Part shown: piece by piece, positions 30,844-63,542 of the stretch | How positions within the stretch are numbered: the stretch's first letter is position 1 | How the letters are laid out: each line of letters begins with the position of its first letter | Source of the DNA: Candidatus Anderseniibacteriota bacterium | GTDB taxonomy: Bacteria > Patescibacteriota > JAUYIX01 | Length of the DNA: 64,000 nucleotides | Direction of reading: 5' to 3' | NCBI GenBank assembly: GCA_046350855.1 | Contig: JAXLZM010000004.1 | Location: 10,491-74,490, forward strand | Notes under the pieces: model-generated | The model's input: only the letters and a program-made list of their open reading frames with translations | Told to the model about the DNA's origin: nothing | Database searches by the model: none | Position numbers and translations under genes: made by a program

Positions 30844-31608
30844 TTATTTGCCAAAGCGTCGGCTGCGCGACTGGTACTCTTTTACGGCGTCTTCAAAATC
30901 GGCTTCGCTAAACTCCGGCCAAAAGCGCTTAGTAAAGTAGAGTTCGCTGTAGCTGCCCTGCCAGAGCAAAAAGTTGGAGAGGCGTTGTTCACCCCCGGTG
31001 CGGATGATCAGGTCGGGGTCATTTTGGCCGGCCGTGTCGAGATTGGCCGTGATGGCCTCCTCGGTAATGTTGACGGCGGCTACGCCCTTGTCAAGCAGAC
31101 GGCGCACGGCCCGCACGATCTCCGAGCGACCACCATAGTCGAGCGCAATGTTGAGGATGAACTTATTATTACGCTCGGACACCCGCATCAACTCCTCGAT
31201 AGCACGACGCAGGTTGTCGGGTAAGCGTTTGAGGTCTCCAATTGTGCGGAACCGAATATTATTTTTGAGGATCGAGAAGCGCTCCGTAACGACAAACTTA
31301 AGCACGAGTTTAAACAGGTTACTCAGTTCTTCGCGTGTGCGTTTCCAGTTCTCGGTCGAGAGGGCGTAAATCGTGAGATTGGTGACGCCCATGGCTTGGG
31401 CTTTTTTCATAATACGGCGAATATTGTCGGCGCCGGCTTCATGTCCCTTGAGTGGGGACAGTCCGCGCTGTTTGGCCCAGCGGCGGTTGCCATCGATAAT
31501 AATGCCGACGTGACGCGGCACTGCAGGACTCGTAGCGGCTGGTTCCGCCTTGGTCAAAGGCTGTAATTGCATGGCGGCCATCCTAGTCTTATCGACCCAA
31601 CGAGTCAA
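30844..31608 (-). CDS. uppS: Isoprenyl transferase (undecaprenyl diphosphate synthase)
   Basis: HVGIIIDGNRRWAKQRGL and the rest of the UppS fold are present. The start may be one of the internal Mets at 31581 or 31572. Confidence 0.85.
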   Translation of the reverse strand: MTRWVDKTRMAAMQLQPLTKAEPAATSPAVPRHVGIIIDGNRRWAKQRGLSPLKGHEAGADNIRRIMKKAQAMGVTNLTIYALSTENWKRTREELSNLFKLVLKFVVTERFSILKNNIRFRTIGDLKRLPDNLRRAIEELMRVSERNNKFILNIALDYGGRSEIVRAVRRLLDKGVAAVNITEEAITANLDTAGQNDPDLIIRTGGEQRLSNFLLWQGSYSELYFTKRFWPEFSEADFEDAVKEYQSRSRRFGK

Positions 31609-31613
31609 TTTGA

Positions 31614-33143
31614 CTATTGCACAAACGCTTGCCCCACCATCAAATCATACCAACTCTCTACCAGAGGCCGATCATCGGTTGCAGGAGCAAGTCCTGGCTC
31701 AGGTAGAACCGGTGTCGCCAAGGTCGCAATACTCTCAACCGCAGAGCGCAATTCTATCGGAGCCTGGGTGGGGTCTGGTTTTACTAGCGGTGCCGAGCTC
31801 GCATACAAGACCACGTTGTAACTACTGGGCACTGGTAGCGCGAGTACATTTGGGAAAACACTGGCGATGGTAGTAGCGAGCGTTTGTTGCACATGCGAGT
31901 TTTCTCCAACAACGTTTAGGTTAACGGCGAGTATCCCGTCAGCTGCAAGTTTACTTTTAGCCAGCTCAAAAAACTCCTGAGTCGAGAGATGGGGCGGGAT
32001 GTACAACTGCCGAAAAGCATCGACGACCAGTACATCAAACGGTCCTGATTGGGCGTTGAGCCAGACACGACCATCTGCAGGGGTGCTGGTGAGTGTCTGC
32101 AGCTCGCCTAAACCAAAGTACTGGCGCGCGAGGTCGAGGGTGGCTGGGTCAAGTTCTGCGCCGGCTTGCGTGAGTTGGTGCGGTTTTACACTCTTGGGTC
32201 CATACAAGGCCTCGACCTCGCGCGCGACCGTTCCCCCGGCTAAACCAACGATCCCAACGGAAAGATCCGTACGGGCACGGGCGGTCGTCGGTCGTAACTC
32301 GGGAGATGCAGCCAACCAATCAAACACTAGCCCGGTCGTGATCACATGTGGGTCATAGACAGAGTGGATACCCAACCCCTCGTCTTGTTCCAAGTGCACT
32401 TGTTGGTCGTGGTCGCGTACGACCCGGAGATACTCCAGGCGACTCTCCCGCTCGGCCACCACCTCGTCCGCCCCCCTACTGAGCGTCGGAGAGACCAGGA
32501 GACCCGCTCCTGCAAGCACTAGAGCAACAAGACCAGGGCCAAGCACACGCTTTGCGCCAGAGCGTGCCAAACCGACAACACTCAACAGCGCCAATAGCGC
32601 CGCAAACGACAAAATCGTTTTTTTGGTTCCAATCAGTGGCACTAACAAGAGTGTCGGCAAAAACGTCCCGAGCAAGCTCCCGATCGTCGACCAGGCGTAG
32701 ATCCGGCCGGCCGCTTTGCCGCGGTGTTGGTGCTGGTCGGTACCCAGATGCACCAGCCACGGGCTGACCATCCCGAGTAGCACAAAGGGAATAAAGAACA
32801 GTACAAAGCAACCCAACAAACTAAAAACGATCAAGCGCCAATCTACCGTCGAGATGTGATCGCGCAAAAAGCTGAGCAGACTGGGTGCCACAAACGGGAT
32901 CAACGCACAAACACAGGCGGTCAAAAGCATTAGCAAAAACAAGGGTCGCGCGGCCCGTAGTTTGTCAGCCAGCCAACCACCCGACCAGTAGCCCACTGCC
33001 AATCCCGCCAAGATCACACCCAAAATATTAGACGTCACAAAAATCGAGTTACCAAAATAGGGTGCCACGATTCTAAACGATGTAATCTCGATGCCGAGCA
33101 CCACCAGGCCGCTTGTAAAGGCAACCAGTCTGATAAAACGCAT
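31614..33143 (-). CDS. Membrane protein with a C-terminal spermidine-synthase-like (class I methyltransferase fold) domain
   Basis: About 6 N-terminal TM helices. The C-terminal part has VGIVGLAGGTVAREV...DVLVVDAF, the spermine/spermidine synthase family fold. Confidence 0.6.
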   Translation of the reverse strand: MRFIRLVAFTSGLVVLGIEITSFRIVAPYFGNSIFVTSNILGVILAGLAVGYWSGGWLADKLRAARPLFLLMLLTACVCALIPFVAPSLLSFLRDHISTVDWRLIVFSLLGCFVLFFIPFVLLGMVSPWLVHLGTDQHQHRGKAAGRIYAWSTIGSLLGTFLPTLLLVPLIGTKKTILSFAALLALLSVVGLARSGAKRVLGPGLVALVLAGAGLLVSPTLSRGADEVVAERESRLEYLRVVRDHDQQVHLEQDEGLGIHSVYDPHVITTGLVFDWLAASPELRPTTARARTDLSVGIVGLAGGTVAREVEALYGPKSVKPHQLTQAGAELDPATLDLARQYFGLGELQTLTSTPADGRVWLNAQSGPFDVLVVDAFRQLYIPPHLSTQEFFELAKSKLAADGILAVNLNVVGENSHVQQTLATTIASVFPNVLALPVPSSYNVVLYASSAPLVKPDPTQAPIELRSAVESIATLATPVLPEPGLAPATDDRPLVESWYDLMVGQAFVQ

Positions 33144-36100
33144 TAGAGCGAGGACTCGAGGTCGGTCTCTACCCCAGCGGAGATGGCGCTGGTTCCACCA
33201 AACAACACGCCCCCCATCACTTGTGCCCCGTATGCGGCCAAATAGTCGGCTACCGCCTCCGGCACCGCATCTGGTTGAACCAAAAGCAGCGGAGCTTGCA
33301 GCTGCTGTGAGCCAACTAAGGGGCCGGCCACGAGACTGTCCGGAAAGTTAGTCCCGGTCGAAAAGCTAACCGTGTCGGCACTCGGGTAAAAGGTCTGGGC
33401 CAGTTGCACGGCGGTCTCGTACCGGTTGCTGCCGGCGGTTCTGTCGACCGTCCCGTACGGATCAGCCGCGTCAAAGACGTCGTCGCTCACCACGGCGCTG
33501 CCGCCCACGATGTGGATACTAGTAGCGGGCGTTTTTTTAAGAAAATCCTCGGTCACCTGGGGCAGCGCGTCTTTAGTAGTAAGCACGATGGCGGCGCGAT
33601 CCCGGGCCGCAATGGAGGAGGCTGCGAGCGCATCCGGAAAGCTCGTGCCACTGGCCAAAAAGACTTGTGTGAGATGCTCGAGCTGCTCGGCCACTTGGAC
33701 CGCGGTCTCGTAGCGATTGGCTCCCGCTAGTCGTGTGACCGCAAACCCCGCTGCGCTGAGTGCATCCGCGACCGCCGCCGAGATGGCACTCTCCCCTCCC
33801 AAAAGCCAGACCTTGCCACCCTCGGGCAAAACTCGCTCGATCTCAGCCAGAACCTCCGGCTGCAACGTAGCCGTCGAGGTCAGCAAAATGGGCGCGTTTT
33901 CTTGCGCGGCCAGAGGGGCACCCGCCAGTCCATCTGCAAACTGATCCCCCCGAGCCAAAAAGACCGCGCCAGCACTCTTGTCCTGGCTAAATTGGTTTTG
34001 GCTAATGGCAATGGCGGTCTCGTACCGATTGGCCCCTTCCAGTCGATCGAGCGTGATAAAGCTATAGGCCCCGCGGTCAAACGCTCCCAGCTGCGAGCGA
34101 GAGCGCCCATCAAAATCACGGTCATACCCGTGAGAACTGCCCGAGCGGATCGCCGGCGACCCGGCACGCACTTTGTAGTTTTCGGTACCGGCCAGACGTG
34201 ACAAGACTAGCGCTGCATCCGACATCATTTGGTAGACCACCCCCGTCACGCTGCTGTAGGAGTTATTAGCGTAGGCCTCGTAGACCAGCTTAGCCACGTC
34301 GGTATTGCCCGGTAGCTCGGCCCAGCTATGAAAATAATAAATCCGCGAGGCGACCGAGGCAGAGAGGGTGCCATCCAAATACCAGTTGATGCTGCCCGTA
34401 CTGGGTTTCCACAATTGCGAGCTAAAGGTTCGGCCAAAAAGGGCCAAATCAGAGTCGGTAAAGGTAATCCCGGCCTCGCGTGCTGCCTCAACAAACTTAA
34501 TCACGACCCCGCCGTGGTTGACGTCCTCTGAGATAACATCCTGCCAGGCATCGGTGCTCAGTGCTGGATAGTAGTAACGCCAGTAAAAAAATGATTGACC
34601 GTCGGTGGCGGTGCGCACCTCGAGCTTAGATTTAAACCAGTCTGCCACTTGCTTGGCGCGCGTTTTGTACTTGGTATCACCAGTGGCCTGGTACATACGC
34701 ACCCAGAGTTGCGCTAAGTCCGCGCTCTGGTTGACCGGCAAGGTGTTGCCCGGGATGGCGTACTGTTCGTCCGTGGGCCAGCGATAGACCCCGCCTGGAC
34801 CGCCCGCCCAGATGGACGAACCACTCGTCTTAAAGTATGGCTCCCACTTGGGGTAAATCTCCGTATCGACTTTAGTGATGTAGTCCTGCGCTTTGGCCAA
34901 GTAGGTCGAACCCGCCACAGGCAAACCCTGGAGAGTGGGGTCACCCAGCACCTCGACCGCAAACTCGATCAGAGGGGCCAGGAGGCCGCCCTCAATGTTC
35001 TCGTACTCGAGCTGCTTTTTAGCTTTGGTCTCGATTTTGTAGACATCACCACCGACCGGGTACTCGTTTTGCGATTGGTTGCAGCAAAAGTAGACTTTGA
35101 CATCGTAGTTGACCGCGCTCTCGATGGTGGGATCGTCCAGGGTTTGTGGAGTAAGGCCCGCACCGGCGTACGTCACATTGGTCGCAAGCGCGACCGGGGT
35201 ACCGGTCACGTCCCATACGTCGTATTTGCTCGGGCTCGTAAAGCGTAGTTCAAGTTTTTTGCTGAGTAACCCGTCCGCATTGCCAGGGCCGTAGATGCCG
35301 AGGTCGCCATTGACGGGCGTGCCGGCGGAGTCCAGTACCTTAAACGTCACGCCGTTGCCGGATGTCCCAACGCTCGGTTTAACCATAGCGCGCGCGTAGC
35401 GACTGGTGGTCCAGCCGCAGTACCCATCATCAGTGCTACCCGGTGTGGCGGGGTTGTCAGTACAGTTGGCCCAGACGTTGTCGGCCTGGTCCACGATTTT
35501 AGCTAGCCAGCGCGTGTCTTTAGTGGCGCGATACATGTCCAGATATGATTCAAACATAAAGCCTTGATCCCAGCGTAGGTTGGCCGCGTTGGTGTTGTTG
35601 GACCAAGCCTCCCCACCAAAGAGGGCTGCGTCTAAATCCCGGACGGTATTATGCAAAAAGTTGGTTTTGTCGGACTCGCGCGTGCTCGTACTGCGGTATC
35701 GAGGATCGGCCTCATTGGAGCCACTCTCTCCTCCCGCAGCCGCTCCCAAGCTCCCCACCGTGTATTTGGCCGAACCACCCACCGCGCCCAGAGCACCACT
35801 CGGGTTCCAATAGCTGTTGTTACGGGTGGTCAAGCCACTTTTAGAGGGAGTATCGATACGAACCGGATCCTCTAAGGCTGAACCATACAAATTGTTTTGC
35901 AAAAGCGCGTTGGTCGAGCTCTCCAGATCGATGCCCACGTTGCTGTGATGAAAACTCCCGTTATAGACATCAAAGCTGGTCGAGTTGACCGCCCGCACCG
36001 CTGCACCATAGATCTCACTCCCAATGATGTTGAGTGCCGAATCATTGGGCGAGTTTTTAACCAAGACGCCAGCGTCGTTACTGCCCCGATCCCCGATATC

Positions 36101-36814
36101 CGAGGCCCAAATCGACCGTGCCGAAGAGCTCCCAGCATTATCAAAGGTGATCCCGGTACCGGCGTAGTGCTTAAAGAGCAAGCCTTCAACCAACACATTG
36201 GGCACATTGACCACTTTGAGTCCGTTGGACCCGGTCGTGAGCGTAACGGGTCGTGTGTTGGGGTCGGCGTAGTCGAGCAAGCGCACCACCACGTTGCCGC
36301 CCGAGTAGGTCCACACATTACGCTGCCGCTTAACATCGTTGACGCTCGCGACGTGCTTGAGTCGCTCTAATCCGTCGGTGACAAACTTGGGTTGGTTAGA
36401 GGGTGCCGTGTAGACGTCGTTGGTTCCACTCAGGCGGAACCAGGTCGTGGGTGCCGCCCCACCGATAAAGAGCGGTTTTTGTGTCGCGGCGTTTTTGATC
36501 GTGATGACCGCTCCGGCCGGGCCATTGTTTTTGCCGGTCAGGGTCGACTCGCTTAGGTAGGTGCCTGGTGCAACCAAAATTGTGTAGTTTTGCGTAGGGG
36601 TAGCCGGAATCGCATTGATGGCCGCTTGCAAGGTAGCGTAGGTCTGCCCCGCGCCTACCGTGAGCTCGACCGTGGCGAGACTGGCTTTAAGAGTGGGCAC
36701 GACCTCACTGCCTGGATCGGCCTTGCTAGCCGCCTGGACAGACTGGGGTGCAACACTCGCAAAAAGACTTACGGTTACAAGGAGAGTCAGTGTTAGTTTG
36801 GAAGTCAAGCGCAT
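33143..36814 (-). CDS. Large secreted protein with a right-handed beta-helix (pectate-lyase-like) domain, a central glycosidase-like region, and three C-terminal CWB2 cell-wall-binding repeats
   Basis: Signal peptide, then parallel beta-helix repeats (NSTSFDVYNGSFHHSNVGIDLESSTNALLQNNLYGS...). The C-terminus has three ANRYETA...ADGLAG...PLLL... repeats, the CWB2 type. Confidence 0.7.
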   Translation of the reverse strand: MRLTSKLTLTLLVTVSLFASVAPQSVQAASKADPGSEVVPTLKASLATVELTVGAGQTYATLQAAINAIPATPTQNYTILVAPGTYLSESTLTGKNNGPAGAVITIKNAATQKPLFIGGAAPTTWFRLSGTNDVYTAPSNQPKFVTDGLERLKHVASVNDVKRQRNVWTYSGGNVVVRLLDYADPNTRPVTLTTGSNGLKVVNVPNVLVEGLLFKHYAGTGITFDNAGSSSARSIWASDIGDRGSNDAGVLVKNSPNDSALNIIGSEIYGAAVRAVNSTSFDVYNGSFHHSNVGIDLESSTNALLQNNLYGSALEDPVRIDTPSKSGLTTRNNSYWNPSGALGAVGGSAKYTVGSLGAAAGGESGSNEADPRYRSTSTRESDKTNFLHNTVRDLDAALFGGEAWSNNTNAANLRWDQGFMFESYLDMYRATKDTRWLAKIVDQADNVWANCTDNPATPGSTDDGYCGWTTSRYARAMVKPSVGTSGNGVTFKVLDSAGTPVNGDLGIYGPGNADGLLSKKLELRFTSPSKYDVWDVTGTPVALATNVTYAGAGLTPQTLDDPTIESAVNYDVKVYFCCNQSQNEYPVGGDVYKIETKAKKQLEYENIEGGLLAPLIEFAVEVLGDPTLQGLPVAGSTYLAKAQDYITKVDTEIYPKWEPYFKTSGSSIWAGGPGGVYRWPTDEQYAIPGNTLPVNQSADLAQLWVRMYQATGDTKYKTRAKQVADWFKSKLEVRTATDGQSFFYWRYYYPALSTDAWQDVISEDVNHGGVVIKFVEAAREAGITFTDSDLALFGRTFSSQLWKPSTGSINWYLDGTLSASVASRIYYFHSWAELPGNTDVAKLVYEAYANNSYSSVTGVVYQMMSDAALVLSRLAGTENYKVRAGSPAIRSGSSHGYDRDFDGRSRSQLGAFDRGAYSFITLDRLEGANRYETAIAISQNQFSQDKSAGAVFLARGDQFADGLAGAPLAAQENAPILLTSTATLQPEVLAEIERVLPEGGKVWLLGGESAISAAVADALSAAGFAVTRLAGANRYETAVQVAEQLEHLTQVFLASGTSFPDALAASSIAARDRAAIVLTTKDALPQVTEDFLKKTPATSIHIVGGSAVVSDDVFDAADPYGTVDRTAGSNRYETAVQLAQTFYPSADTVSFSTGTNFPDSLVAGPLVGSQQLQAPLLLVQPDAVPEAVADYLAAYGAQVMGGVLFGGTSAISAGVETDLESSL

Positions 36815-36837: not shown

Positions 36838-37059
36838 TCAAAAAAATTCAATCACCGGAAAGCGCCGGTCCAGCTCGGCCGGATCAAGGATCTGGCCGTT
36901 TTGTTGCGCCTGACCGACTGCCGCGTCGCGACGCACCCTTTGGACAAAGTTCACCACTAGGCCACATCCAAGCAGCGCCGCAACGAGGAGGCCGATACAG
37001 GCCAAGCTCACGAGCAGAGCGGTTTTTTTAGGTTGCGTGACGAGGAGGGACTTGTTCAT
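36838..37059 (-). CDS. Hypothetical small membrane protein (73 aa)
   Basis: Single TM segment (ALLVSLACIGLLVAALLGCGLVV). It lies just upstream of the large CWB2 gene. Confidence 0.35.
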   Translation of the reverse strand: MNKSLLVTQPKKTALLVSLACIGLLVAALLGCGLVVNFVQRVRRDAAVGQAQQNGQILDPAELDRRFPVIEFF

Positions 37060-37090: not shown

Positions 37091-37846
37091 ATGCCGGCTG
37101 CACGACCGTATTTGAGCGTGATTATTCCGATGTACAACGAGGAGCAGCGCCTGGCGGCGACCGTGCGGGCCGTGGTGGCGTACCTAGAGGAGCACCGCCC
37201 CTCGTTTGAGGTGCTCCTGGTGGACGATGGTTCGACCGATGGGAGTGTGGCACTGGCTCACTCTCTGGCGGCCGAACTCCCCAACCTGGCGGTCATCACG
37301 CATCCCCGTAACTTGGGCAAGGGGGCCAGCGTCCAAGATGGATTGCGTGAGGCGCAGGGTGAGTACCTCCTGTATATGGATGCAGATCACTCCACCAACA
37401 TTGCTGAACTTCGCCAGCTCCCACGTTTGATCGCGCGTGGAGCAGACGTCATGGTTAGCTCACGCTATGTGCCAGGTAGCCGCATTACCAGTAAGCAACC
37501 CTGGCAGCGGGTGGTCGTGAGTCGGGTTGCCAATTTTGTTATTCGTCTTTTTGCAGTACCCGGGATCCATGACACACAAAACGGCTTTAAGATTTTGCGC
37601 GGGACGGCGGCGCGCGACATTTTGCCGCACTTGCTGCTGCGACGCTGGGCCTTTGACGTGGAGTTACTATATGTCGCGCGCCGCCTGGGCTATCGGGTGG
37701 TGGAATTTCCGGTCACCTGGCACCACACCCCTGGATCCAAACTCAACATCGGTCGCGATTTACGCAACACGGTGGGAGAATTTTGGAAGTTCATCTGGAA
37801 TCGTCTCAGGGGTCGCTATCCCAAGCGCCTCAGAGCGAGAGATTAG
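37091..37846 (+). CDS. Family 2 glycosyltransferase, polyprenyl-phosphate sugar synthase-like
   Basis: SVIIPMYNEE...LVDDGSTDGS...YMDADHS are the GT2 / DPM1-like motifs. Confidence 0.85.
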   Translation: MPAARPYLSVIIPMYNEEQRLAATVRAVVAYLEEHRPSFEVLLVDDGSTDGSVALAHSLAAELPNLAVITHPRNLGKGASVQDGLREAQGEYLLYMDADHSTNIAELRQLPRLIARGADVMVSSRYVPGSRITSKQPWQRVVVSRVANFVIRLFAVPGIHDTQNGFKILRGTAARDILPHLLLRRWAFDVELLYVARRLGYRVVEFPVTWHHTPGSKLNIGRDLRNTVGEFWKFIWNRLRGRYPKRLRARD

Positions 37847-37847
37847 C

Positions 37848-38321
37848 TTACTTTTGTAGGGCTGCCAGATCGGCCAGGACCTCGGCCGGATGTTCTACCG
37901 GCTTAACTTTGGGGTAGAATTTAGCGATTGTACCGGCTGGATCGATCAAAAATGACATGCGGCGGATACCCATATACTCGCGGCCCATAAACTTTTTGAG
38001 ACCCCAGACACCATAGGCTTTGATAGTAGTTTTGTCGGGATCAGAGAGGAGTGTAAACGGCAGCCCAAACTTTTTGGCGAACTTGGCGTGGCTCTCGACC
38101 GAGTCGGCGCTCACACCTAGAACGACCAATTTACTTTTTTTAAAACGCGGCAAACTATCCCTAAAACCACAGGCCTCTTTAGTGCAGCCCGGAGTATCGT
38201 CCTTGGGATAAAAGTAGAGTAGGACCCACTTGCCTTTGTAGGTTTTGAGGGTATGCGTTTTTTTGCTTTGGTCCTGGAGACTAAAATCGATCGCTCTTGC
38301 TCCAACGGCTAATTTTGGCAT
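37848..38321 (-). CDS. bcp: Peroxiredoxin, Bcp-type thiol peroxidase
   Basis: FYPKDDTPGCTKEAC is the AhpC/TSA active-site motif. Confidence 0.9.
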   Translation of the reverse strand: MPKLAVGARAIDFSLQDQSKKTHTLKTYKGKWVLLYFYPKDDTPGCTKEACGFRDSLPRFKKSKLVVLGVSADSVESHAKFAKKFGLPFTLLSDPDKTTIKAYGVWGLKKFMGREYMGIRRMSFLIDPAGTIAKFYPKVKPVEHPAEVLADLAALQK

Positions 38322-38341
38322 AGACCTAGTGTAGCAAAGCG

Positions 38342-39076
38342 CTAAGCCGGCTGCTTTTGTGTGAGATAGCGTTTACGAGTGGCCGCTGGAAACTTTTCTA
38401 TGGCGTAGCGCAACATGGTACGCGGCATATGGGCAGCGTGTGCCCGCAAAAAGCGCTCTTCGATGGCGCGCTCACGCTCCCCCACCTCGCGCAGCATCCA
38501 GCCCACCGCTTTGTGAATGAGATCGTGCCGGTCTGTAAGCAGTACGGTTGCGATGGACAGGGTGTCAGCAAACTCTCCTGCTCGGATAAAGGCTTGGGTC
38601 GCCAAGATGCTAATGCGCCGATCCCAAAGCACTCTAGAGCGAGCTAGCCTACGTAAGACCGCAAGACGCTGACTGTGAGAGGCGGTGGCGAGCAGATGCC
38701 GGCCCACGATGTGCGGGGCACTCGAGTCGATGATGTCCCAACTATTGATACAGCGCGTGTTGGCTAAGTAGGTCTCGTAGATTTTTTGGCGTTGCCCAGC
38801 GGTACCACGCTTGTAGAGCTCATTGAGGATGAGTACAGCGGCCAAACGATCCTCGTGGACCCGACTGCGTAGCAGCGTACGTGTCTGCACAAGCGGTAGC
38901 TCGCGGAACCGCTTAACCACGGCGCGTATGTGCGGGACGGCCGCCCCGATAAAGACGTCCCCCTCGCCATACTCGCCCGTACCGGTCTTAAAAAAGCCGG
39001 CCATGACGTGGGCTCGTTTGCTGTTGCGGAACCGTCGTAAGCTCCGCTGCACCTCCGTTGCTTTGAGTGTGGCCAT
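38342..39076 (-). CDS. DNA alkylation repair protein, AlkD-like HEAT-repeat glycosylase family
   Basis: The HEAT-like repeat protein ...WDIIDSSAPHIVG...HDLIHKAVGWMLREVG... The track ORF has been trimmed to the Met at MATLKATEVQ, which abuts the upstream gene's stop. Confidence 0.7.
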   Translation of the reverse strand: MATLKATEVQRSLRRFRNSKRAHVMAGFFKTGTGEYGEGDVFIGAAVPHIRAVVKRFRELPLVQTRTLLRSRVHEDRLAAVLILNELYKRGTAGQRQKIYETYLANTRCINSWDIIDSSAPHIVGRHLLATASHSQRLAVLRRLARSRVLWDRRISILATQAFIRAGEFADTLSIATVLLTDRHDLIHKAVGWMLREVGERERAIEERFLRAHAAHMPRTMLRYAIEKFPAATRKRYLTQKQPA

Positions 39077-39077
39077 T

Positions 39078-39857
39078 TTAGTCTCTAAAACGGTACTTAA
39101 AAATCGTCCAAAGTGCTTTGACACCGTCGCGCCAACCAATCTTTTTACCTTCGGCGTAGTCGCGGCCATCGTAGGAGATGGGCACTTCGTAGACGCGACA
39201 GTGTTTTTTGGCGACCTTGGCGGTAATTTCTGGTTCAAAATCAAAACGATCTGATTTAATCGTGATGCCCCGTAAAATCTCACTCCTAAAAACTTTGTAG
39301 CAAACCTCCATGTCGGTCAGGTTGAGGTTGGTCATCATGTTGGAGAGAGTCGTGAGCATTTTGTTAGCCACCATGTGCCAAAAGAGGTGCACACGACGCG
39401 CCCCGCCACCCCCAAAGCGGGTGCCAAAAACGACATCGGCCTTACCCTCTAAAATTGGTGCCAACAAATGTGCATACTCGCGTGGATCGTACTCGAGATC
39501 CGCGTCCTGGATAATTGCAAAGTCGCCCGTGATGTGTTGGATCGCGGTCCGCACCGCAGCACCCTTACCTTGATTGCGTTGATGCATGACCACCTTGACC
39601 TCAGGATAGCGCCCCTCGATCTTACTCGTCAGAATCTCCCGGGTGCCGTCCCGCGACCCGTCATCCACCAAAATAATTTCTTTTTGATAGGGCGTGGCTC
39701 GCACCCGGCGCACGATTTCTTCGATGGTCTTTGCCTCATTGTAGACCGGCACCAGCACGGACAAAACAAAATCCGTCGAGACGGGCTGTGGCGCCAGGCT
39801 CGTTAGTGTTGGGAGCGTGTTGGGTCTTGCGGTAGGTACGGTAGTCGTGGTGTTCAT
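39078..39857 (-). CDS. Family 2 glycosyltransferase, DPM1/GtrB-like
   Basis: [18 protein letters not shown]...[11 protein letters not shown]...[10 protein letters not shown]. The ORF has been trimmed to the Met at MNTTTTVP. Its ATG overlaps the TGA of the upstream membrane-protein gene (ATGA). Confidence 0.8.
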
Positions 39858-41332
39858 ACGGTTGAACCTGATCGTGGGGAGTATACCGGTTTTGTTTGGG
39901 TAAGCAACACGATTAAGCACGTCACCGTCAGATACAAAGTGGGTACCAGGTGCAGCATAAGTCGATCGAGCGAAGTCGTAATATGCCAGGTCAAATCGTG
40001 CGGACTGGTCACGTACACCACACCATAGGTCGCGAGTTGCGCTCCGAGGAGCCCCAGTGGGGCGAGCCACACTAGTGGCCGGCGCTGAGTGCGCCACCAC
40101 GCCACGACCACTGGTACAAGCAAGGTCATCGGCAAAATCGCCCACCCCCAGTGGTCCACCCGTGGCCACTCACTCAAAAACCAGTGCGTCACCTCGATCA
40201 CCTGGTTCAGATAAAATTGCACGGTCCGATTGAGCCCGGGCAAGAGCAAATCAACCCGGTAGCCCTGCCTCACTTTGATCCCATGCCATAGTACGACCGG
40301 CAGAACCAACGTTGCCAGGACCGGTAGCGCAGCGGTCGCCCACCAGATCAATGGCGTCGAGCGCTCGTGGGTCTCGACTGATACCACACGCCGCCGCGTC
40401 AACCAAACTGCCGAGAGTCCCACCACCAGATAGAGCAAGGCAAAGGCACTCCCCTCATTTTTGATCGAAAGTGCGGCCAGGGCCGGCGAGAGTCCCAACA
40501 AAAACCAAAGCCAAGGCGTTTGGCGGTTGGTGATGCGACTAGTTGCAAGACCCAGCAGCGCAACCGTCGCGGCCAAAAACAGACTAGCAAGGGGCACGTC
40601 TGCTAAGCCAAGGCCCGCAAAGAGCATGGGGTCCCCGGCCAGTAAAATCAAAAAGAGTGCTGCTCCGAGTCCAAAGATCGCAAAGCGTAAGCGTCGCTCG
40701 GGGTTCAAGACACGCTCCAGTGCACCACCGGTCAAGACAAGCAAGAGCCAAAAAAAGGTCACGTACGTAAGGGCGACGGGTTGCTCGCTCACCCCACCAA
40801 ACCATTGGTAGTGCGCCGCCACCAAGGCCGGGAACCCCAATGGATAATCTTTGTGGGCCGAGCTAAACAGGTCGCTCTCATAGAGTGTGTTAGGGACGTG
40901 CTGTTGGACATAGATGGCCTTAGCCTTGAGAACCCAAATCATTTTGGCGTCCCAGGAGGTCAAGGGGTAGAGCACTGCGTTAACCGCGATGGGTGCGACC
41001 AAAATGAGCGAGAGGAGGAGTAACCCAAGTTGTGAGCGGTTGGGTACGAGCAGGCGGACGAGGGTCCAGCGCCCGCGCGCCAACGCAAGCAAAAGGCTTA
41101 CCAATCCGACCACCCCAAAGCCCCAGGCTACGACTGGACTGGCAGAAAAATGAGCGTTGAGAAGCAGTGCCGTAACAAACGCCGCGTACACCCCCAGCCC
41201 CACTACCAGAGAAAACCCAATCGTAAGCAGGAGATTGAGCCGCAAACGCAGCACAAACCAAATTACGATCCCCAGGCCACCGAGACCCAGCAGCACCAAG
41301 AGTAAGGCTGTCTTAAGCAAGAGAATCGTCAT
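39854..41332 (-). CDS. Multi-pass membrane protein, a candidate GT-C-fold glycosyltransferase (PMT/ArnT/DUF2029-like)
   Basis: About 12 TM helices and 492 aa. It is translationally coupled to the GT2 gene downstream of it. Assignment rests on topology and context only. Confidence 0.5.
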
Positions 41333-41802
41333 TGCCGTACGTAGATAAAACAGCCCTCACCGATCGTTTTTGTATACTGCCGAGACGGCAGCGTTAATTC
41401 GGTCTCGGAGATAAAGGCTGTGCCCGGTTGGGCCTGAGTAAGTTCGGCCTGCAACTCGGTTGAACCCACCGCCACTTTTTTTGGCAGAACCGGATAGAGC
41501 TCGTAGTAGACCTCAAGGTCAAAACGCGAGGGTGGATCAACCTGCTCCCCTACGAGGACGATCGTGTCCGCCTGCTGTGCGACTTTTGTATGTTGGCGCA
41601 AAAAGCGTCGGACGGTGTAGTAAGGATCGTTTTGGTTAAAGATTTGTTCGGCCGAGTACTGACCGGTTTTAGAGAGCGTGGTCGGATAGGCGGTGCGCTG
41701 TACCCAATACAAAAAGAGCAGGCCATTGACCGTGGCAATCACGGCTAGGATCGTGATCGCTAGCTGTACTACTGGCTGTTTTGTCGCGTGTACCGAGGTC
41801 AT
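41329..41802 (-). CDS. Hypothetical membrane-anchored protein (157 aa)
   Basis: Single N-terminal TM segment. Its stop overlaps the start of the GT-C gene. Confidence 0.5.
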   Translation of the reverse strand: MTSVHATKQPVVQLAITILAVIATVNGLLFLYWVQRTAYPTTLSKTGQYSAEQIFNQNDPYYTVRRFLRQHTKVAQQADTIVLVGEQVDPPSRFDLEVYYELYPVLPKKVAVGSTELQAELTQAQPGTAFISETELTLPSRQYTKTIGEGCFIYVRQ

Positions 41803-41899
41803 GCGTGACGAGCTTAGCGCAGATCAAGTAACGGTCAACCCAAAAAGGCGCCCGCATTCGCGGGCGCCTCCAGAACAAACGCTCTTCTTAGACGAGACG

Positions 41900-42469
41900 T
41901 TACTGAGTCGCGTTGTTAGTGGCGTTGCTGGTGTTATTGGTCTCGTTGGTGGCGTTTGACGTGTTAGCCGGTGTGGTATTAGCGGCGTTACCCGTGCTGT
42001 TTGTCGCGTTCTTGGTGTCAGGGTTCAAGACGACGGGTGCCACGTTGATGATGCGGTTCTCCGAGGTACGGAAGATAATGGCCTCTGTGCTGTAGAGCAA
42101 CAAGGTGTCACCGTTACGAGCATTTTTGTAGAACGACTCGTTAGCCGCACGTAGCTTGTCGACATCCGTAATCGTAGCGACGGTTGGCTTATCCTCAGGC
42201 ACCAAGATCAACTTAGAAACACTATTGATCACGTTTTGGCTAGCTTCCTCAGCCAATTTAGTCTGGGCCTCAGGCTTCTTGAGGGACATGTTTTGCCAGT
42301 ACATATAGGCAAGTCCACCAGCGAGAGCGAGAACGAGGACCCAAAGAATAATGGTCATCGCGCCAAAGCGGCGACGAGAAGTTTTTTTTGCGGGAATTGG
42401 ATCTGGCACGGGGGTGAGAGGTGAATAATTAGTCCCCGTATCATAACGAGAGGGACCCTGGTACGTCAA
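41900..42469 (-). CDS. Hypothetical membrane-anchored protein with an Asn/Thr-rich C-terminal tail
   Basis: TM segment (MTIILWVLVLALAGGLAYMYW). The tail reads NATNSTGNAANTTPANTSNATNETNNTSNATNNATQ. Confidence 0.5.
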   Translation of the reverse strand: MTYQGPSRYDTGTNYSPLTPVPDPIPAKKTSRRRFGAMTIILWVLVLALAGGLAYMYWQNMSLKKPEAQTKLAEEASQNVINSVSKLILVPEDKPTVATITDVDKLRAANESFYKNARNGDTLLLYSTEAIIFRTSENRIINVAPVVLNPDTKNATNSTGNAANTTPANTSNATNETNNTSNATNNATQ

Positions 42470-42531: not shown

Positions 42532-43008
42532 ATGCGTAAAGCCTGGATTGTTCCGCTCCTGCTTATCATTGGACTGGTAGCCACCGTCGGCTGGATCATA
42601 CGCGCGCCGCGTCAGCAGTCATTTTTGCCGGCAGAACTGGCGGGTAAAATTACTTTTACGGTCTACGCCCCAAAAACAATGCCGACGGGGTTCAGCCTCA
42701 AAACGGACTCACTACGGTATCAGGAGGGTGTGCTGCTGTTGGATATTACGTCCCCCATCGCAGATGAACCCCTGGTCGTAAGCGAGCAAGCTCGACCGCA
42801 GGATTTTAAATTTGAAGATTTCTATAAAGATTTTTTTGGCAGCACTAAGACCACTAATGAATTGGGTGAGCTCGTAGTCGGGACTGTGCGCAATCAGACG
42901 ATCGCTAGTTTGCTAACGGACACAACGTGGGTCTTGATTACCGGTTCAAAAAACATCGAGTTTGCGACCGTCAGTGAACTGGCCAAATCTCTCGCACCGG
43001 TTAACTAA
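42532..43008 (+). CDS. Hypothetical membrane-anchored protein (158 aa)
   Basis: N-terminal TM segment (IVPLLLIIGLVATVGWII). It converges on the giant gene with a 16-nt gap. Confidence 0.55.
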   Translation: MRKAWIVPLLLIIGLVATVGWIIRAPRQQSFLPAELAGKITFTVYAPKTMPTGFSLKTDSLRYQEGVLLLDITSPIADEPLVVSEQARPQDFKFEDFYKDFFGSTKTTNELGELVVGTVRNQTIASLLTDTTWVLITGSKNIEFATVSELAKSLAPVN

Positions 43009-55735: not shown

Positions 55736-57736
55736 TTACTGGAAGTAGACGGCTTCGACCGCTTGCTTGATGCTGTCAGGCACGACAACCGTTCCACCGT
55801 AGACGTTACCCTCTGCAATAGGGGCTGCGTTGACGGTCAAGTAGTCAGAGGTTGGTGTGGGCAGACTGGTTGGAGTAACCAGCAATAACGGTCGGTTGTT
55901 GAGACCAGAATGACGACCACCGGTCAGGGCATCGGCAAAACCAAGGCCGTTGGCGATACCAATCGTACGCGGTGTATTGGCGCCGCTAAAGAAGGCATCT
56001 GCAATGGCAACCGCGGTTTCAAAACGGTTATTGCCGGCATAGCGATTGACGGTATCGACGTCCATATCCGCTGCCACCATAACCGCATCAGACAACACTA
56101 CCGTTCCACCAACTAAGTCGACCGTATCGAGCGTCCCCGCAACCGAGTCAAAGTAGGAGGAGACCCCGGCATCCAAAGCTTTACTGTCGCTCAACAAGAT
56201 CGGCATAAAGTCTGGGTTGACGGTCTCGGCACTTGCGGCTGCACTGGCGGCTAACGCATCTGGGAAGTTACGCGCATTAGCCAGGATCGCCTCGGACGGA
56301 CCGTTTCCGCGAATCGTGTCCATCTCTGCCGCAACTTTGATCGCAGTTTCGATACGATTATTACCGCCGATACGCTTGATATCAAGGTCTGGGTCAAGCG
56401 CCGCAATTGCGGTCTCAACGTCACTGCTCAAAGCGCTGGTTCCACCAATCAGGTACAAATCTGTTACAGAGTGTGTGTCGTCGACACTATCAAAGACGCG
56501 CGTGATCTCGGCCGCAACGGAAGAATCGAGACTATCTTTGGGGTTAATCAAGAGTGGCGCATCCAGCAAGCCTGCGAGCGGGCCAGCTCCCAGTCCATCC
56601 GGAAAGTCTGCACTGGTCGCAACGACGATGGCATCGGCCGAGTTAGCGGTCGGAAAAGCGTCCTGATCGATCGCGATCGAGGTAGCAACGCGGTTAGCGC
56701 CAGACAAACGGACAAGATCCGTATCGAGCACCGCGTGGAGGCGATAATCAGGCGACGAGAACGTAATGTTATCGACGTTGATCTCTACACCCCCTGAGAC
56801 TTCCTGGGCATTAAACGGAACCGTACTAATCGTACTACCTGTCTCGGTGCGGACCACGCTCAAGCTCGAAGTGTCGATTTCATCCGGCAACAGCCCAAAG
56901 AATCCAGCTACCACTGCGGTTGGCAAAAAGGCCTGCATGCTGCCGACGTTGGGTGTCGTACCATCTGCCAAAAAGTGCGGTGCGCCCAGTGAGGCGACCA
57001 GGTCGGTCGGTCCCTCAGGCGTTTGTTCTGGGGTCACAAAGCCGCCCATGGCGCTCACTAACGCAAAGTACGAACCCGCCACATCCTCACCGTAGCCATC
57101 TTGGTCAAAAAGCATATAGAGACTACCACTCAAAACGTCCATATCGGATTTGGTCGCGTTGCAATGGGGTGGCGTAGCGGTACAAAAATCAAAATCTGAG
57201 CCGGTTCCAAGGGGCGTACGAGCGGGGGTAAGCGTTACATCTACCGAGGCCGCATCGGTACCAAGACCGGCCGTTGCCCAATCTAAGACGACACCGTGGA
57301 TCAGTGAGAAGGTATAGAACTCGTCCAGTTCACCCATATCGGTAAGTACAAGGTGAAACTGAGTCTCATCCGTAATAGGGGTGACACCATCCGGTGCCAT
57401 AGCTCCGGTCAGATCCTGGTGATCGTCATTGAGCCCATCGTGGCGATAGAGCGTGACACCGACAAAACGTCCCTCATCTTGCGCAGCACACACGACCGCA
57501 CCAACCTCACCAACATCGGGGTTGGTTGGATCGGGCACGACTTGGCCATCCACGGTCATGGAGGCAATTACCGGCCGGTCTAATCCAAGATCGTTCCAGG
57601 TAAAGTCGGGTGAACCACTATCACACTGACTCTGGTCGGGCATTGAATCGCCCGCTGCATGTGCCAGATGGGGCACAAAAAATACCGCGGCCACCAAAAC
57701 GGCCAACAGCGCTGTAACACTTTTATATGACTTCAT
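55736..57736 (-). CDS. Secreted surface protein with three C-terminal CWB2 cell-wall-binding repeats
   Basis: Signal peptide (ALLAVLVAAVFFVPHLAHA). The C-terminal half has three repeats of the ANRYETA/ANRVATS...ADALA(A/G)...PLLL type. Confidence 0.7.
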   Translation of the reverse strand: MKSYKSVTALLAVLVAAVFFVPHLAHAAGDSMPDQSQCDSGSPDFTWNDLGLDRPVIASMTVDGQVVPDPTNPDVGEVGAVVCAAQDEGRFVGVTLYRHDGLNDDHQDLTGAMAPDGVTPITDETQFHLVLTDMGELDEFYTFSLIHGVVLDWATAGLGTDAASVDVTLTPARTPLGTGSDFDFCTATPPHCNATKSDMDVLSGSLYMLFDQDGYGEDVAGSYFALVSAMGGFVTPEQTPEGPTDLVASLGAPHFLADGTTPNVGSMQAFLPTAVVAGFFGLLPDEIDTSSLSVVRTETGSTISTVPFNAQEVSGGVEINVDNITFSSPDYRLHAVLDTDLVRLSGANRVATSIAIDQDAFPTANSADAIVVATSADFPDGLGAGPLAGLLDAPLLINPKDSLDSSVAAEITRVFDSVDDTHSVTDLYLIGGTSALSSDVETAIAALDPDLDIKRIGGNNRIETAIKVAAEMDTIRGNGPSEAILANARNFPDALAASAAASAETVNPDFMPILLSDSKALDAGVSSYFDSVAGTLDTVDLVGGTVVLSDAVMVAADMDVDTVNRYAGNNRFETAVAIADAFFSGANTPRTIGIANGLGFADALTGGRHSGLNNRPLLLVTPTSLPTPTSDYLTVNAAPIAEGNVYGGTVVVPDSIKQAVEAVYFQ

Positions 57737-61060: not shown

Positions 61061-61504
61061 ATGCTTCAAAAACGCACAGCCGTACTCTATTTTGCTTGGG
61101 CCGTTTCGCTGGCGGGCTTGCTGGGTAGCTTGTACTACAGCGAAATCCGCCACCTCGTGCCCTGCGTTTTGTGCTGGTACCAGCGCATCTGCCTGTATCC
61201 GCTCGCAGTCATTTTTGCGGTGGGCCTTCTCAAAAAAGACAAGTACCTCCCCTACTATGTCTTGCCGCTCTCGTTGATCGGTGGGGGCATCGCACTCTTC
61301 CACTACCTCTTACAGCTCGGAATTATTCCGGACTCGTTAGCGCCCTGCACACAAGGCATCTCCTGCGCCTCGGTGTACGTCGAGTATTTTGGGTTCATCA
61401 CGATCCCCTTTATGTCACTGGTCGCCTTTACAATCATCTCGATCTGCATGTGGCTTACCCTCCGATGGAACAAAGCAGCTTCAGCCACTAATACACTCGC
61501 ATGA
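61061..61504 (+). CDS. Disulfide bond formation protein B (DsbB/BdbC family)
   Basis: Four TM helices with CVLCWYQR (a CxxC pair in the first loop) and a second Cys pair (APCTQGISC). Confidence 0.8.
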   Translation: MLQKRTAVLYFAWAVSLAGLLGSLYYSEIRHLVPCVLCWYQRICLYPLAVIFAVGLLKKDKYLPYYVLPLSLIGGGIALFHYLLQLGIIPDSLAPCTQGISCASVYVEYFGFITIPFMSLVAFTIISICMWLTLRWNKAASATNTLA

Positions 61505-62169
61505 ACGTCAAAGTAATCATTGGTATCGTCGTCGGTACCGCCCTCTTGATTGGGGGGCTCGTATTTTGGGGTAACAAAACCATCCCAACTAAACTCGGCA
61601 CCAAAACGGATGGGGCGGCGCAATTAGTGCGTGAGTATAGTCCGGCGATCGGTGCGACCACGGAAGTTGCTAAAGTAACGCTGGTTGAATTTGGTGACTT
61701 TGAATGCCCGGCTTGTGCCGGCGCAGCTCCAATTTTACGAGAGCTGGTCAAGCAAACAAAAGACCTGCGCTTAGTTTTTAGGCATTTTCCGCTCGACCAG
61801 CACCTCAACGCTGAGACGGTTGCTAAGGCGGCCGAGGCGGCCAACGCCCAGGGCAAGTTTTGGGAGCTCTACGACCTCGCCTATGCCCGGCAGAGTGAGT
61901 GGAACAGCCTCTCGATCAAGGACGCCGAGGCCAAGTTTGAGTCATACGCGGCTGAACTCGGACTCGATCTGGAGCGTTTTAAACAAGACCGCACTAAGGC
62001 AGCACTCCTCGATCATATTCGACTCGACAAAGGTGAAGGGTTGGCACTCGGCGTGACCGCGACCCCTACGCTCTATTTAAACGGCACCAAGTACGAGGGT
62101 GACCGCGACCTCGAGTCGCTCAAAAAAGCGGTGGCTGCGGCTCGCACGAGTCCCGCGCCGGCTGACTAA
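61501..62169 (+). CDS. DsbA-like thiol:disulfide oxidoreductase (thioredoxin fold)
   Basis: N-terminal TM segment/signal and a CPAC active site (FGDFECPACAG). Its start overlaps the dsbB-like gene's stop. Confidence 0.8.
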   Translation: MNVKVIIGIVVGTALLIGGLVFWGNKTIPTKLGTKTDGAAQLVREYSPAIGATTEVAKVTLVEFGDFECPACAGAAPILRELVKQTKDLRLVFRHFPLDQHLNAETVAKAAEAANAQGKFWELYDLAYARQSEWNSLSIKDAEAKFESYAAELGLDLERFKQDRTKAALLDHIRLDKGEGLALGVTATPTLYLNGTKYEGDRDLESLKKAVAAARTSPAPAD

Positions 62170-63542
62170 GCCGTTCCCCTGCCCTTGATAATCAGCTTGA
62201 CCGTGCGGATCACGATCGCGATGTCCAGGGCGAGCGAACGGTTTTTTAAGTAGTAGAGGTCGTACTGGATTTTTTCGAGCGTGTCACGCTCGGAGGCACT
62301 GGTCAGCACGTTACGCACCTGGGCCCAACCGGTCATGCCCGGCTTGATCATGTGCCGCTCGTGGTAGAACGGAATTTTTTGCTCCAGGCGCTGGACGTTC
62401 TCTAGGTACTCGGCGCGCGGGCCAATAAAGTTCATGTCACCCGCGACGATGTTGAGGAGTTGCGGCAGTTCATCCAGATGGGTCTTGCGGAGGATGCGAC
62501 CAACCGAGGTGACCCGTGGATCGTTGGTGCCCGTGATCAAGCCGCTGCCGACCTGCGCTGCATTAGGGACCATGGTACGGAACTTATAAAACCTAAACGG
62601 TCGACCCCAGAGGCCGACTCGCTCGGTTTTTTCGACAAAAATGGGCCCGCGGCTGGTGAGCTGCTGGGCGATGATAATAATCGGCCAGAGCGGTGCGGAG
62701 ATGAGGAGAAAAAACAACCCCAGCCCACGATTAACAAATTCTTCGCCGTAGCGTCTAAACTCGCTGCGCTGTCCGAGGTTGGCAAAGAGCATGTTGAGCT
62801 GTCCCACGTGTTGGACGGGGGTCATACCGGTGAGCTCCTCGTAGAGATCGGTCAACTCGCGCACGTGGATGCCACGACGTTTAAGGGTCACGACGGCACG
62901 GACCAGTCGATCATCGGCCGAACCCTGTGTGCCCAATACGATCGTGTCGACTTTGCCGGCGCGGACCAAGGCGGGCAGCTCAGCTAGGGTGACCAACGGG
63001 AGGGTACCGGACAGGGCGCGTGGTCGTGGCGCCAAAATACCCGCCACGTGGTAGGGCGAGTGAGCACGCTCGGCCAAAAGAGTGACGACTTCGAGTGCAC
63101 TGGGGTCGGTGCCCACCACGAGCAAATTCTCCTTAAGAGAACGCGAAACGAGCGCCCGACCGTAGACGATGCGCGCCAACCAAAGCAGCAGCACGATCAA
63201 GAGAGCCGCCACCACCAACGCACGGGCCGAAAACTCCGGTGCACCAGGCAGAACAAAAAACAAAAAGCCTGTCGCCACGCCCCCGGCGCCCGCCGCGAGC
63301 ACCATTGCACTCAGACCCTTCCAAGGAGTTACGATCTCCTCCAAGTGGTAGCCCTGCACAAAATAGACCGCCAACAAAAAGACGATCACCGGCAAGACAA
63401 AGTACCAGGTGTCGCCAAATACGAGTTCATCAAAATAGCCTGGACGAGTCGCCACCCGCAGGGCCACGAGCAAGGCACCCGTAATCAACAAAGCGTCGAC
63501 TACCAGGAGTAGCACCTTTCGCGTAAGCGTCTTGGAGGCCAT
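62166..63542 (-). CDS. Polyprenyl-phosphate glycosyl-1-phosphate transferase (bacterial sugar transferase, WbaP/EpsB family)
   Basis: N-terminal TM helices and the C-terminal Bac_transf domain (...[36 protein letters not shown]...). Confidence 0.88.

Follow-up and report, generated by a model that had tools for sequence, protein, structure and literature searches.

We analysed a 64,000-nucleotide stretch (hereafter the window) of contig JAXLZM010000004.1, which belongs to a Candidatus Andersenbacteria metagenome-assembled genome from the candidate phyla radiation (CPR/Parcubacteria), focusing on a candidate glycosylation locus. The functional unit of this locus is a cassette of three tightly coupled minus-strand genes, which are transcribed in the order: a gene for a 157-amino-acid (aa) single-pass membrane protein (41802 to 41329), a gene for a 492-aa protein that structural modelling assigns to the GT-C-type glycosyltransferases (41332 to 39854) and a gene for a soluble 259-aa family 2 glycosyltransferase (GT2b; 39857 to 39078). 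The stop of the 492-aa gene and the start of GT2b share an ATGA overlap (ACCGTATGAACACC), as a previous reading of this DNA from its letters alone (hereafter the sequence-only reading) had pointed out, and a second ATGA overlap (CAATGACG) joins the 157-aa gene to the 492-aa gene. Every open reading frame (ORF) named in that reading was recovered with unchanged coordinates by an ORF check of the window, but the unit is smaller than the locus it proposed and has other edges. The mechanical ORF list was too long for two genes (38342–39283, 313 aa; 39078–40169, 363 aa), as ortholog alignments and the ATGA overlap place the true starts at 39076 for a 244-aa DNA-alkylation repair gene and at 39857 for GT2b. 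The three genes belong together as a real and conserved unit, most probably a glycosylation cassette that uses a lipid carrier in a familiar way and is built around an uncharacterised branch of GT-C enzymes.

The 492-aa protein is identical in sequence to an annotated hypothetical protein (locus tag U0517_03640). Its AlphaFold2 (AF2) model (pLDDT 78.8, pTM 0.85) contains about 13 transmembrane (TM) helices together with juxtamembrane helices, in agreement with a hydropathy scan, so that the polytopic character proposed earlier stands and the proposed count of 12 TM helices gives way to a slightly higher one. Comparison of the model with the PDB using Foldseek returned ArnT in complex with undecaprenyl phosphate (5f15; E 2.9e-3, probability 1.0, TM-score 0.42, identity 15%), with further high-probability matches to AftB (9dlh, probability 1.0), ALG3 and Pmt1/Pmt2. 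All matches with a probability of 0.9–1.0 were GT-C enzymes, while WaaL and RodA reached only 0.25 and 0.30, respectively. These matches bear out the earlier suggestion of a GT-C enzyme of the PMT/ArnT kind, and on the strength of this model the protein is a GT-C-type glycosyltransferase from a divergent branch of the PMT_2 clan. No second GT-C enzyme was found in the window.

A word-indexed search retrieved ten homologs of the 492-aa protein, the closest of which were CPR-derived where a source was named. When a profile of these ten sequences was searched against 1.84 billion cluster representatives using HMMER, the family comprised 8,501 representatives at E ≤ 1e-3 and 1,911 at E ≤ 1e-30, and the Andersenbacteria protein is thus the CPR tip of a very large family. 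Among 70 sampled members, PMT_2 was detected in 52 (best 1.1e-10) and PMT in 14 (best 4e-8), several sampled members exceeded Pfam gathering scores and some relatives carry the source names GT39 or Dol-P-Man protein mannosyltransferase. Residues D128, Y163, P164, D245, K291, E293, R457 and P464 are invariant across the 70 sequences, with D128 sitting in a WDA motif seven residues past TM4. Combining the AF2 helices with the positive-inside rule places Arg-rich loops (residues 29–33, 86–101, 210–217, 265–271, 315–327 and 416–419) inside, and the predicted outside loops hold D128, H160/D162, D245, K291/E293, D361 and H450/R457. Because the Arg-rich loops fall inside, the conserved motifs would face outwards, as is needed for the active site of a GT-C enzyme. 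The helix that enters the catalytic loop comes after three other TM helices, so the core has an N-terminal extension. The protein is a predicted extracytoplasmic transferase with a lipid-phosphate sugar donor, probably a polyprenyl-phosphate sugar, since a GT2 of the polyprenyl-phosphate-synthase type adjoins it in a conserved manner; catalysis by this protein is what its fold and the position of its conserved residues suggest.

The adjoining GT2b matches the Pfam family Glycos_transf_2 (PF00535, 3.3e-36), with AglJ (1.7e-37), PpgS (1.6e-23) and ArnC (4.4e-23) as its best NCBIfam models, all of them below their equivalog cut-offs. Its best PDB relatives, ArnC (1.7e-20), the Pyrococcus furiosus dolichyl-phosphate mannose synthase (DPMS; 1e-18) and GtrB (3e-12), align over the whole catalytic domain. 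The window encodes a second enzyme of this type, GT2a (251 aa; 37091–37846, plus strand), which matches PF00535 (9.5e-33), has PpgS as its best NCBIfam model (4e-19) and has DPMS (4e-16) and ArnC (2.4e-13) as its best PDB relatives. A DAD motif is legible in each of the two translations (in one of them as LYMDADHS). The earlier description of two GT2 genes of the class that makes polyprenyl-phosphate sugars is therefore consistent with both the PF00535 matches and the nearest structures (ArnC, DPMS and GtrB). From its sequence, GT2b is predicted to be a polyprenyl-phosphate hexose synthase whose product serves the GT-C enzyme as donor, a link for which the recurrence of the pairing across phyla is our strongest evidence.

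This recurrence emerged from the examination of 16 further GT-C loci (17 with the window). Eight of them came from CPR (L001, L003, L004, L005, L006, L007, L026 and L008, a short one) and four from Acidobacteriota (L028, L030, L032 and L033), cultured Dyadobacter contributed two (L029 and L031), and of the remaining loci one was deltaproteobacterial (L024) and one unassigned (L023). In 16 of the 16 further loci, a partner gene encoding 124–168 aa with one N-terminal TM helix ends at, or a few bases from, the start of the GT-C gene, usually with a 4-nt overlap, and with the window included the pair of small protein and GT-C was present in 17 of 17 loci. The orthologs of the 157-aa protein lie directly upstream of the GT-C gene in every CPR locus examined (40–56% identity within CPR), including L007, where the ortholog (E 9e-19) is paired with a GT-C protein of only 28% identity. 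The Dyadobacter pairs, each of 124 and 440 aa, are found in Dyadobacter sp. CY343 (L029, 9352–11050) and Dyadobacter linearis CECT 9623 (L031, 8520–10219), and no GT2 adjoins the pair in either locus. Beside the pair, a GT2b ortholog is encoded in 8 of 16 informative loci, spread over three phyla, with identities of 79–83% in CPR, 58% in the deltaproteobacterial locus and 49% in an acidobacterial locus; the identity of the GT-C proteins is lower (41–54% within CPR and about 20–28% beyond). The architecture of a lipid-sugar synthase next to a GT-C enzyme, as put forward by the sequence-only reading, is thus well supported, its adjacency recurring from CPR to Deltaproteobacteria and Acidobacteriota.

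The AF2 model of the 157-aa partner (pLDDT 84) shows a TM helix at residues 10–41 and a compact, small α/β domain. The protein has no Pfam or NCBIfam match, and a Foldseek search of the PDB returned only weak generic α/β matches (best E 1.5e-2, probability 0.41). Two distant relatives of the GT-C enzyme (P0071 and P0141) carry an N-terminal segment of ~165–170 aa fused to the GT-C domain; pairwise blastp (27–34 bits, E 1e-4 to 1e-6) shows these fused segments to be homologous to the small proteins that non-CPR loci encode separately. Comparisons of the CPR 157-aa family with the non-CPR partners and fused segments by hhalign and hmmsearch were not significant, and the fusion was dropped as evidence for the CPR protein, with which these segments share only position, size, architecture and a Y-x-L-x-P-like motif. 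We therefore treat the CPR 157-aa family as the positional equivalent of the non-CPR partners and do not claim homology. The partner would act together with the GT-C enzyme in sugar transfer, as its invariable coupling suggests.

Several observations weigh against the cassette as described here. The 492-aa protein itself has no Pfam (E ≤ 0.01) or NCBIfam match, and a profile of the 70 family members returned nothing from all PDB sequences even at E ≤ 10; membership of the GT-C enzymes by sequence is transitive only, because it is the relatives and not the window protein that match PMT_2 and PMT. Neither GT2 reaches an equivalog cut-off (the best being 129 bits against 325 for AglJ), so that the sugar and lipid specificities of both enzymes are inferred rather than assigned. 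GT2b has no hydrophobic segment or evident membrane anchor, while GT2a has one weak hydrophobic segment, and the C-terminal TM helices of GtrB, ArnC and P. furiosus DPMS are missing. Their absence does not exclude the class, since PpgS and human DPM1 represent a short, soluble GT2 subtype that also lacks them. Half of the informative loci have no GT2b, among them L004, L007 and the two from Dyadobacter. A GtrA-like flippase was not found in the window: there was no match to GtrA (PF04138) among the window proteins scanned, and the only window ORFs of 70–260 aa with at least three hydrophobic segments (356–1078 and 6592–6918) are both far from the cassette. Finally, the DNA-alkylation repair gene, which starts after a 1-nt gap past the GT2b stop, and the peroxiredoxin gene bcp match the cassette genes in tightness of packing and in synteny within the CPR loci. 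As unrelated genes are equally tight in these compact genomes, adjacency and synteny within CPR are weak evidence, and it is the cross-phylum recurrence of partner, GT-C and GT2b that carries the weight.

The upstream boundary of the cassette is marked by a hairpin at about 41844–41871 (minus strand) that resembles an intrinsic terminator. It consists of a 12-bp GC-rich stem (GGAGGCGCCCGC-GAAU-GCGGGCGCCUUUUU; −27.4 kcal/mol, z = −2.7) followed by a U-run, and parts the 157-aa gene from a gene for a 189-aa membrane-anchored protein (42469 to 41900, minus strand). The hairpin is not listed by a consensus terminator scan of the window, probably because G-U and A-U pairs lengthen the stem into the T-run. 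A TTGACC-N17-TAAGCT sequence is visible 5′ of the 157-aa gene, but it did not satisfy the scan for promoters and none is claimed. An Rfam scan of the window returned five tRNAs and nothing else. The two membrane proteins that had been placed after the GT-C gene in the same operon direction are indeed on the same strand, but they lie upstream of it, and the 189-aa gene lies beyond the hairpin. The Asn/Thr-rich tail noted for the 189-aa protein is confirmed by ten N-x-S/T sequons at residues 154–188. This gene has no counterpart beside the cassette in the other loci, and its only homolog among the fetched loci (L010, 8451–8891) sits between a giant-like gene of 644 aa and a gene of 1,727 aa, which suggests that it travels with fibre genes; it is outside the cassette. 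Also neighbours rather than components are the plus-strand 158-aa gene (42532–43008), the DNA-alkylation repair gene (39076 to 38342, minus strand; PF08713) and bcp (38321 to 37848, minus strand), which runs in the same direction as the repair gene. The latter two hold the same position in L001, L003 and L006.

GT2a lies on the opposite strand to the cassette, convergent with bcp, and is separated from the cassette by these two unrelated genes. Its orthologs (60–69% identity) keep the same convergent position in L001, L003, L006 and L026. In L004 (3516–5579), a GT2a-like domain (45% identical) forms the C-terminus of a 687-aa protein with a Wzy_C/TuaE-like polytopic domain, and this fusion gene lies directly upstream of the partner/GT-C pair in a Wzm/Wzt polysaccharide locus without a GT2b ortholog. 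GT2a is a separate polyprenyl-phosphate-synthase-like enzyme kept nearby with a looser tie to the cassette, in which it may have a role. A divergent gene beside GT2a (36838–37059, minus strand) encodes a 73-aa single-pass membrane protein with one hydrophobic segment and no Pfam or NCBIfam match, co-conserved with GT2a in L001, L006 and L026 (40–43% identity). It adjoins a gene for a secreted protein of 1,223 aa (33143–36814, minus strand) with three CWB2 domains, which is syntenic with GT2a and the 73-aa gene in the same three loci.

This is one of three secreted proteins in the window with three CWB2 domains each, the others being encoded at 10592–12547 (plus strand) and 55736–57736 (minus strand); among the three, one has an M23 peptidase domain and one a weak GH76-like match. 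Such triple-CWB2 proteins imply a secondary cell-wall polymer to which they bind. Next to UppS (30844–31608, minus strand) is the gene for a 509-aa membrane protein (31614–33143, minus strand), which has about eight hydrophobic segments and matches MFS and spermine synthase weakly; L001 and L026 keep this gene in synteny with that of the CWB2 protein. The polyprenyl-phosphate sugar-1-phosphate transferase previously recognised at 62166–63542 matches Bac_transf (PF02397, 3.4e-54), and a DsbB/DsbA pair lies directly beside this phosphoglycosyl transferase (61061–63542 together). A 184-aa protein (6008–6562, plus strand) without a family match starts like a lipoprotein and contains a low-complexity region in which N-G-T and N-x-S/T motifs are numerous.

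Upstream of these neighbours on the minus strand is a giant gene encoding 3,800 aa (54427 to 43025). Its product had been described as extraordinarily rich in Thr and Ser, which holds in so far as the two account for 13.9% and 10.5% of residues, but Gly (14.1%) and Ala (13.6%) are abundant too. Features of the protein include a TM segment at the N-terminus, a Gly-X-Y stretch resembling collagen (PF01391, 3.6e-7) and long internal repeats, detected by Tandem Repeats Finder as 447-nt arrays, the only tandem repeats in the window. A C-terminal module of ~180 aa is common to 169 proteins, mostly of 300–860 aa, whose few named sources are CPR (Saccharibacteria); the search with the last 500 aa of the giant protein did not return the giant protein itself. 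In one locus (L009), a protein with this C-terminal module adjoins a Peptidase_S74 (tail-fibre chaperone-like) protein.

Taken together, the cassette probably carries out a two-step, lipid-carrier-mediated glycosylation outside the cytoplasmic membrane, with a general component of the cell envelope as its likely acceptor. GT2b, classified by homology, would act at the inner face of the membrane and load polyprenyl phosphate with a hexose or N-acetylhexosamine taken from a nucleotide sugar, and a putative flippase would carry the polyprenyl-phosphate sugar to the outer face. There, the 492-aa GT-C enzyme with its 157-aa partner would pass the sugar to an extracytoplasmic acceptor, most likely a wall or secondary-cell-wall glycopolymer or many Ser/Thr-rich envelope proteins. 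The acceptor is probably general and unlikely to be the giant protein specifically, since no conserved gene of the neighbourhood encodes it and since CPR, Acidobacteriota, Deltaproteobacteria and Bacteroidota all include loci with the cassette but no giant gene. Among characterised pairs of a GT-A and a GT-C enzyme, some modify proteins and others polysaccharides or teichoic acids (PMC12041528; 10.1101/180810). The GT-C fold therefore does not decide the acceptor, because the same GT-A plus GT-C logic serves polysaccharides, teichoic acids (YfhO) and Ser/Thr-rich proteins, although hints from genomic context lean slightly towards a glycopolymer.

Decoration of a cell-wall glycopolymer with side chains (a secondary wall polysaccharide or a teichoic-acid-like polymer), for which GacI/GacJ/GacL, CsbB/YfhO and PpgS/Rv3779 are precedents, is a plausible form of such a system, if still short of an even chance. 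The existence of a wall polymer is implied by the presence in the window of three triple-CWB2 proteins, UppS and the Bac_transf initiating enzyme, and in four CPR loci (the window, L001, L006 and L026) GT2a is conserved near the cassette together with the 73-aa gene and the gene for the 1,223-aa CWB2 protein. In L004, the pair lies inside a classical ABC-transporter-dependent polysaccharide locus with a sugar-1-phosphate nucleotidyltransferase, a GT4, the Wzy_C/TuaE-like–GT2 fusion, Wzm/Wzt of the TagH/galactan-export type and two more GT2 genes, while in L024 a GT2 and DUF2304 pair flanks the cassette relative, which is the GacI/GacJ arrangement (10.1101/180810). However, a clear polysaccharide context is found in L004 only, Dyadobacter and several acidobacterial loci have no glycan genes nearby and there is no CPR organism with a known polymer structure. 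L003 and L005 also have ABC transporters next to the pair, but these belong to the DrrAB/NodIJ/YadH type and are not clearly glycan exporters; an apparent adjacency to ABC transporters in three of five loci was consequently downgraded as evidence for a glycan acceptor, as only L004 has an exporter of the Wzm/Wzt/TagH type.

We regard general O-glycosylation of many extracytoplasmic Ser/Thr-rich regions, with the giant protein as at most one substrate, as possible but somewhat doubtful. It has a precedent in GtrB/PgtC2 of Streptococcus pyogenes (PMC12041528), it needs no linkage between the cassette and a substrate gene and so fits the missing synteny, and several secreted proteins of the window have low-complexity stretches rich in Ser, Thr or Asn. 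The matches of family relatives to PMT and PMT_2 would also agree with a protein acceptor, but PMT_2 is a broad family that is not specific to protein acceptors and the 492-aa protein lacks the PMT and PMT_4TMC signatures.

It is rather improbable that the cassette represents a cross-phylum two-subunit GT-C system in which the polytopic enzyme depends on its paired, sometimes fused, partner, perhaps for recognition of the acceptor, and which in this CPR bacterium modifies surface structures for adhesion (the giant fibre, for example, or the polymer that anchors the CWB2 proteins) and thereby shapes host attachment.

The sequence-only reading had gone further in proposing the giant protein as the natural acceptor, which would make the cassette a dedicated O-glycosylation system like Ppm1/Pmt, or like Pgf acting on the Cnm adhesin. 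The giant gene and the cassette share a strand, with the cassette no more than 2 kb downstream, the giant protein is 24% Ser plus Thr, has its N-terminal TM segment and is presumably surface exposed, the relatives of the GT-C enzyme match PMT and PMT_2, and streptococcal GT-A plus GT-C systems O-glycosylate Ser/Thr-rich adhesins and disordered regions extracellularly (PMC12041528). Nevertheless, we consider this very unlikely, as a synteny check found a homolog of the giant protein in none of the 16 other GT-C loci, the eight from CPR (41–70% identity) included, and the cassette is also found in Gram-negative phyla. The L001 locus (GT-C 54% identical, 868-kb contig), from the closest long relative, retains on one side the Bac_transf/DsbA/DsbB block (72–78% identical), only 5.6 kb from the cassette, and on the other a block that runs from the cassette and GT2a through the 73-aa gene to the genes for the CWB2 protein and the 509-aa protein, but unrelated genes stand in place of the segment corresponding to 42.5–60 kb of the window (with the giant gene, an ATP-grasp gene and the gene for a CWB2 protein of 666 aa). 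Conversely, three loci with proteins carrying the giant C-terminal module have no GT2 and no GT-C, and at least 11 metagenome contigs with relatives of the giant repeats have no cassette within 3-kb flanks; none of these listed contigs is from the L001 genome, where absence of the giant gene is thus limited to the locus and not proven for the genome. Within the window, the two are separated by the plus-strand gene, the 189-aa gene and the terminator-like hairpin. A link between the cassette and the giant protein is thus not supported, and this Thr/Ser-rich protein should not be assumed to be the substrate.

That the 492-aa protein is no glycosyltransferase at all (but a transporter, an O-antigen ligase or polymerase, or a SEDS-like protein) with incidental GT2 adjacency is hardly credible: it has no family match of its own, its fold statistics are modest with WaaL and RodA lower in the list, and unrelated genes are packed as tightly here, but the top folds are all GT-C, 52 of 70 members confer transitive PMT_2 membership, conserved acidic and basic residues lie in outward-facing loops and the same GT2 adjoins it across phyla.

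CPR bacteria are thought to live attached to other cells, and their envelope chemistry is little known. The cassette provides a concrete, conserved candidate for extracytoplasmic glycosylation in Candidatus Andersenbacteria and exposes a large branch of GT-C enzymes (at least 1,900 clusters at 50% identity at E ≤ 1e-30) whose CPR members have no Pfam or NCBIfam model. As the family is present in cultivable Dyadobacter, its function and acceptor are open to genetic testing. The mechanism is conventional, and it is the putative two-subunit architecture, the breadth of the family and its occurrence in Dyadobacter that make this a small but tractable question; to our knowledge, an invariable small single-pass partner has not been described for bacterial GT-C enzymes.

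Among known systems, a precedent for a two-subunit GT-C enzyme is the eukaryotic GPI mannosyltransferase I of the endoplasmic reticulum, in which the GT-C subunit PIG-M depends on a separate single-pass membrane partner, PIG-X; it is cited for this architecture and no sequence relationship is claimed. The ArnC/ArnT system, which adds aminoarabinose to lipid A, provides both the best solved relative of GT2b (ArnC) and the best fold match of the GT-C enzyme (ArnT), but with a TM-score of 0.42 and 15% identity, and the C-terminal periplasmic domain of ArnT is missing in the 492-aa protein. Lipid A is, moreover, not expected in a CPR bacterium. Ppm1/Pmt (Rv1002c) of Actinobacteria and eukaryotic DPM1/PMT combine a Pren-P or Dol-P mannose synthase with a PMT-type GT-C enzyme, and relatives within the cassette family reach the Pfam thresholds of PMT and PMT_2. 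In contrast to these systems, the 492-aa protein has no PMT, PMT_2 or PMT_4TMC match, has three extra N-terminal TM helices and is invariably paired with a small partner.

In the PpgS/Rv3632/Rv3779 system of Mycobacterium tuberculosis, which adds galactosamine (GalN) to arabinogalactan, the GT-C enzyme acts on a wall polysaccharide and the small partner is a DUF2304 protein acting on the GT2 (cited in 10.1101/180810). PpgS is a short GT2 that makes a polyprenyl-phosphate sugar (model length 226), is similar in size to both GT2s of the window, and ranks first among the NCBIfam matches for GT2a and second among those for GT2b, but the two GT2s score 69–83 bits against an equivalog cut-off of 370. 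The streptococcal systems GtrB/PgtC2 and PgfS/PgfM1/PgfM2, which O-glycosylate Ser/Thr-rich extracytoplasmic protein regions (PMC12041528), are also built from a GT-A synthase of polyprenyl-phosphate sugars and a GT-C enzyme, and are the closest real analogue of the protein glycosylation envisaged by the sequence-only reading. Both GT2s of the window have PgfS among their NCBIfam matches (1e-16 and 6e-18), with scores that fall far short of its cut-off. PgtC2, however, is a YfhO-family GT-C enzyme, while the 492-aa protein belongs to a branch of the PMT_2 clan, and the streptococcal GT2s carry TM helices, of which GT2b has none.

The GacI/GacJ/GacL system of S. pyogenes attaches N-acetylglucosamine (GlcNAc) side chains to the group A carbohydrate, with GacJ (DUF2304, three TM helices) activating the GT2 and not the GT-C enzyme (10.1101/180810). 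The partner of the cassette, in contrast, is a single-pass protein with an α/β domain that is coupled or fused to the GT-C enzyme and has no DUF2304 match, and no Wzx/GacK-like flippase is present at the cassette. In its overall logic, the cassette resembles this system in that a GT2 makes a polyprenyl-phosphate sugar, a polytopic GT-C enzyme with 12–13 TM helices transfers the sugar outside and a small membrane protein is included.

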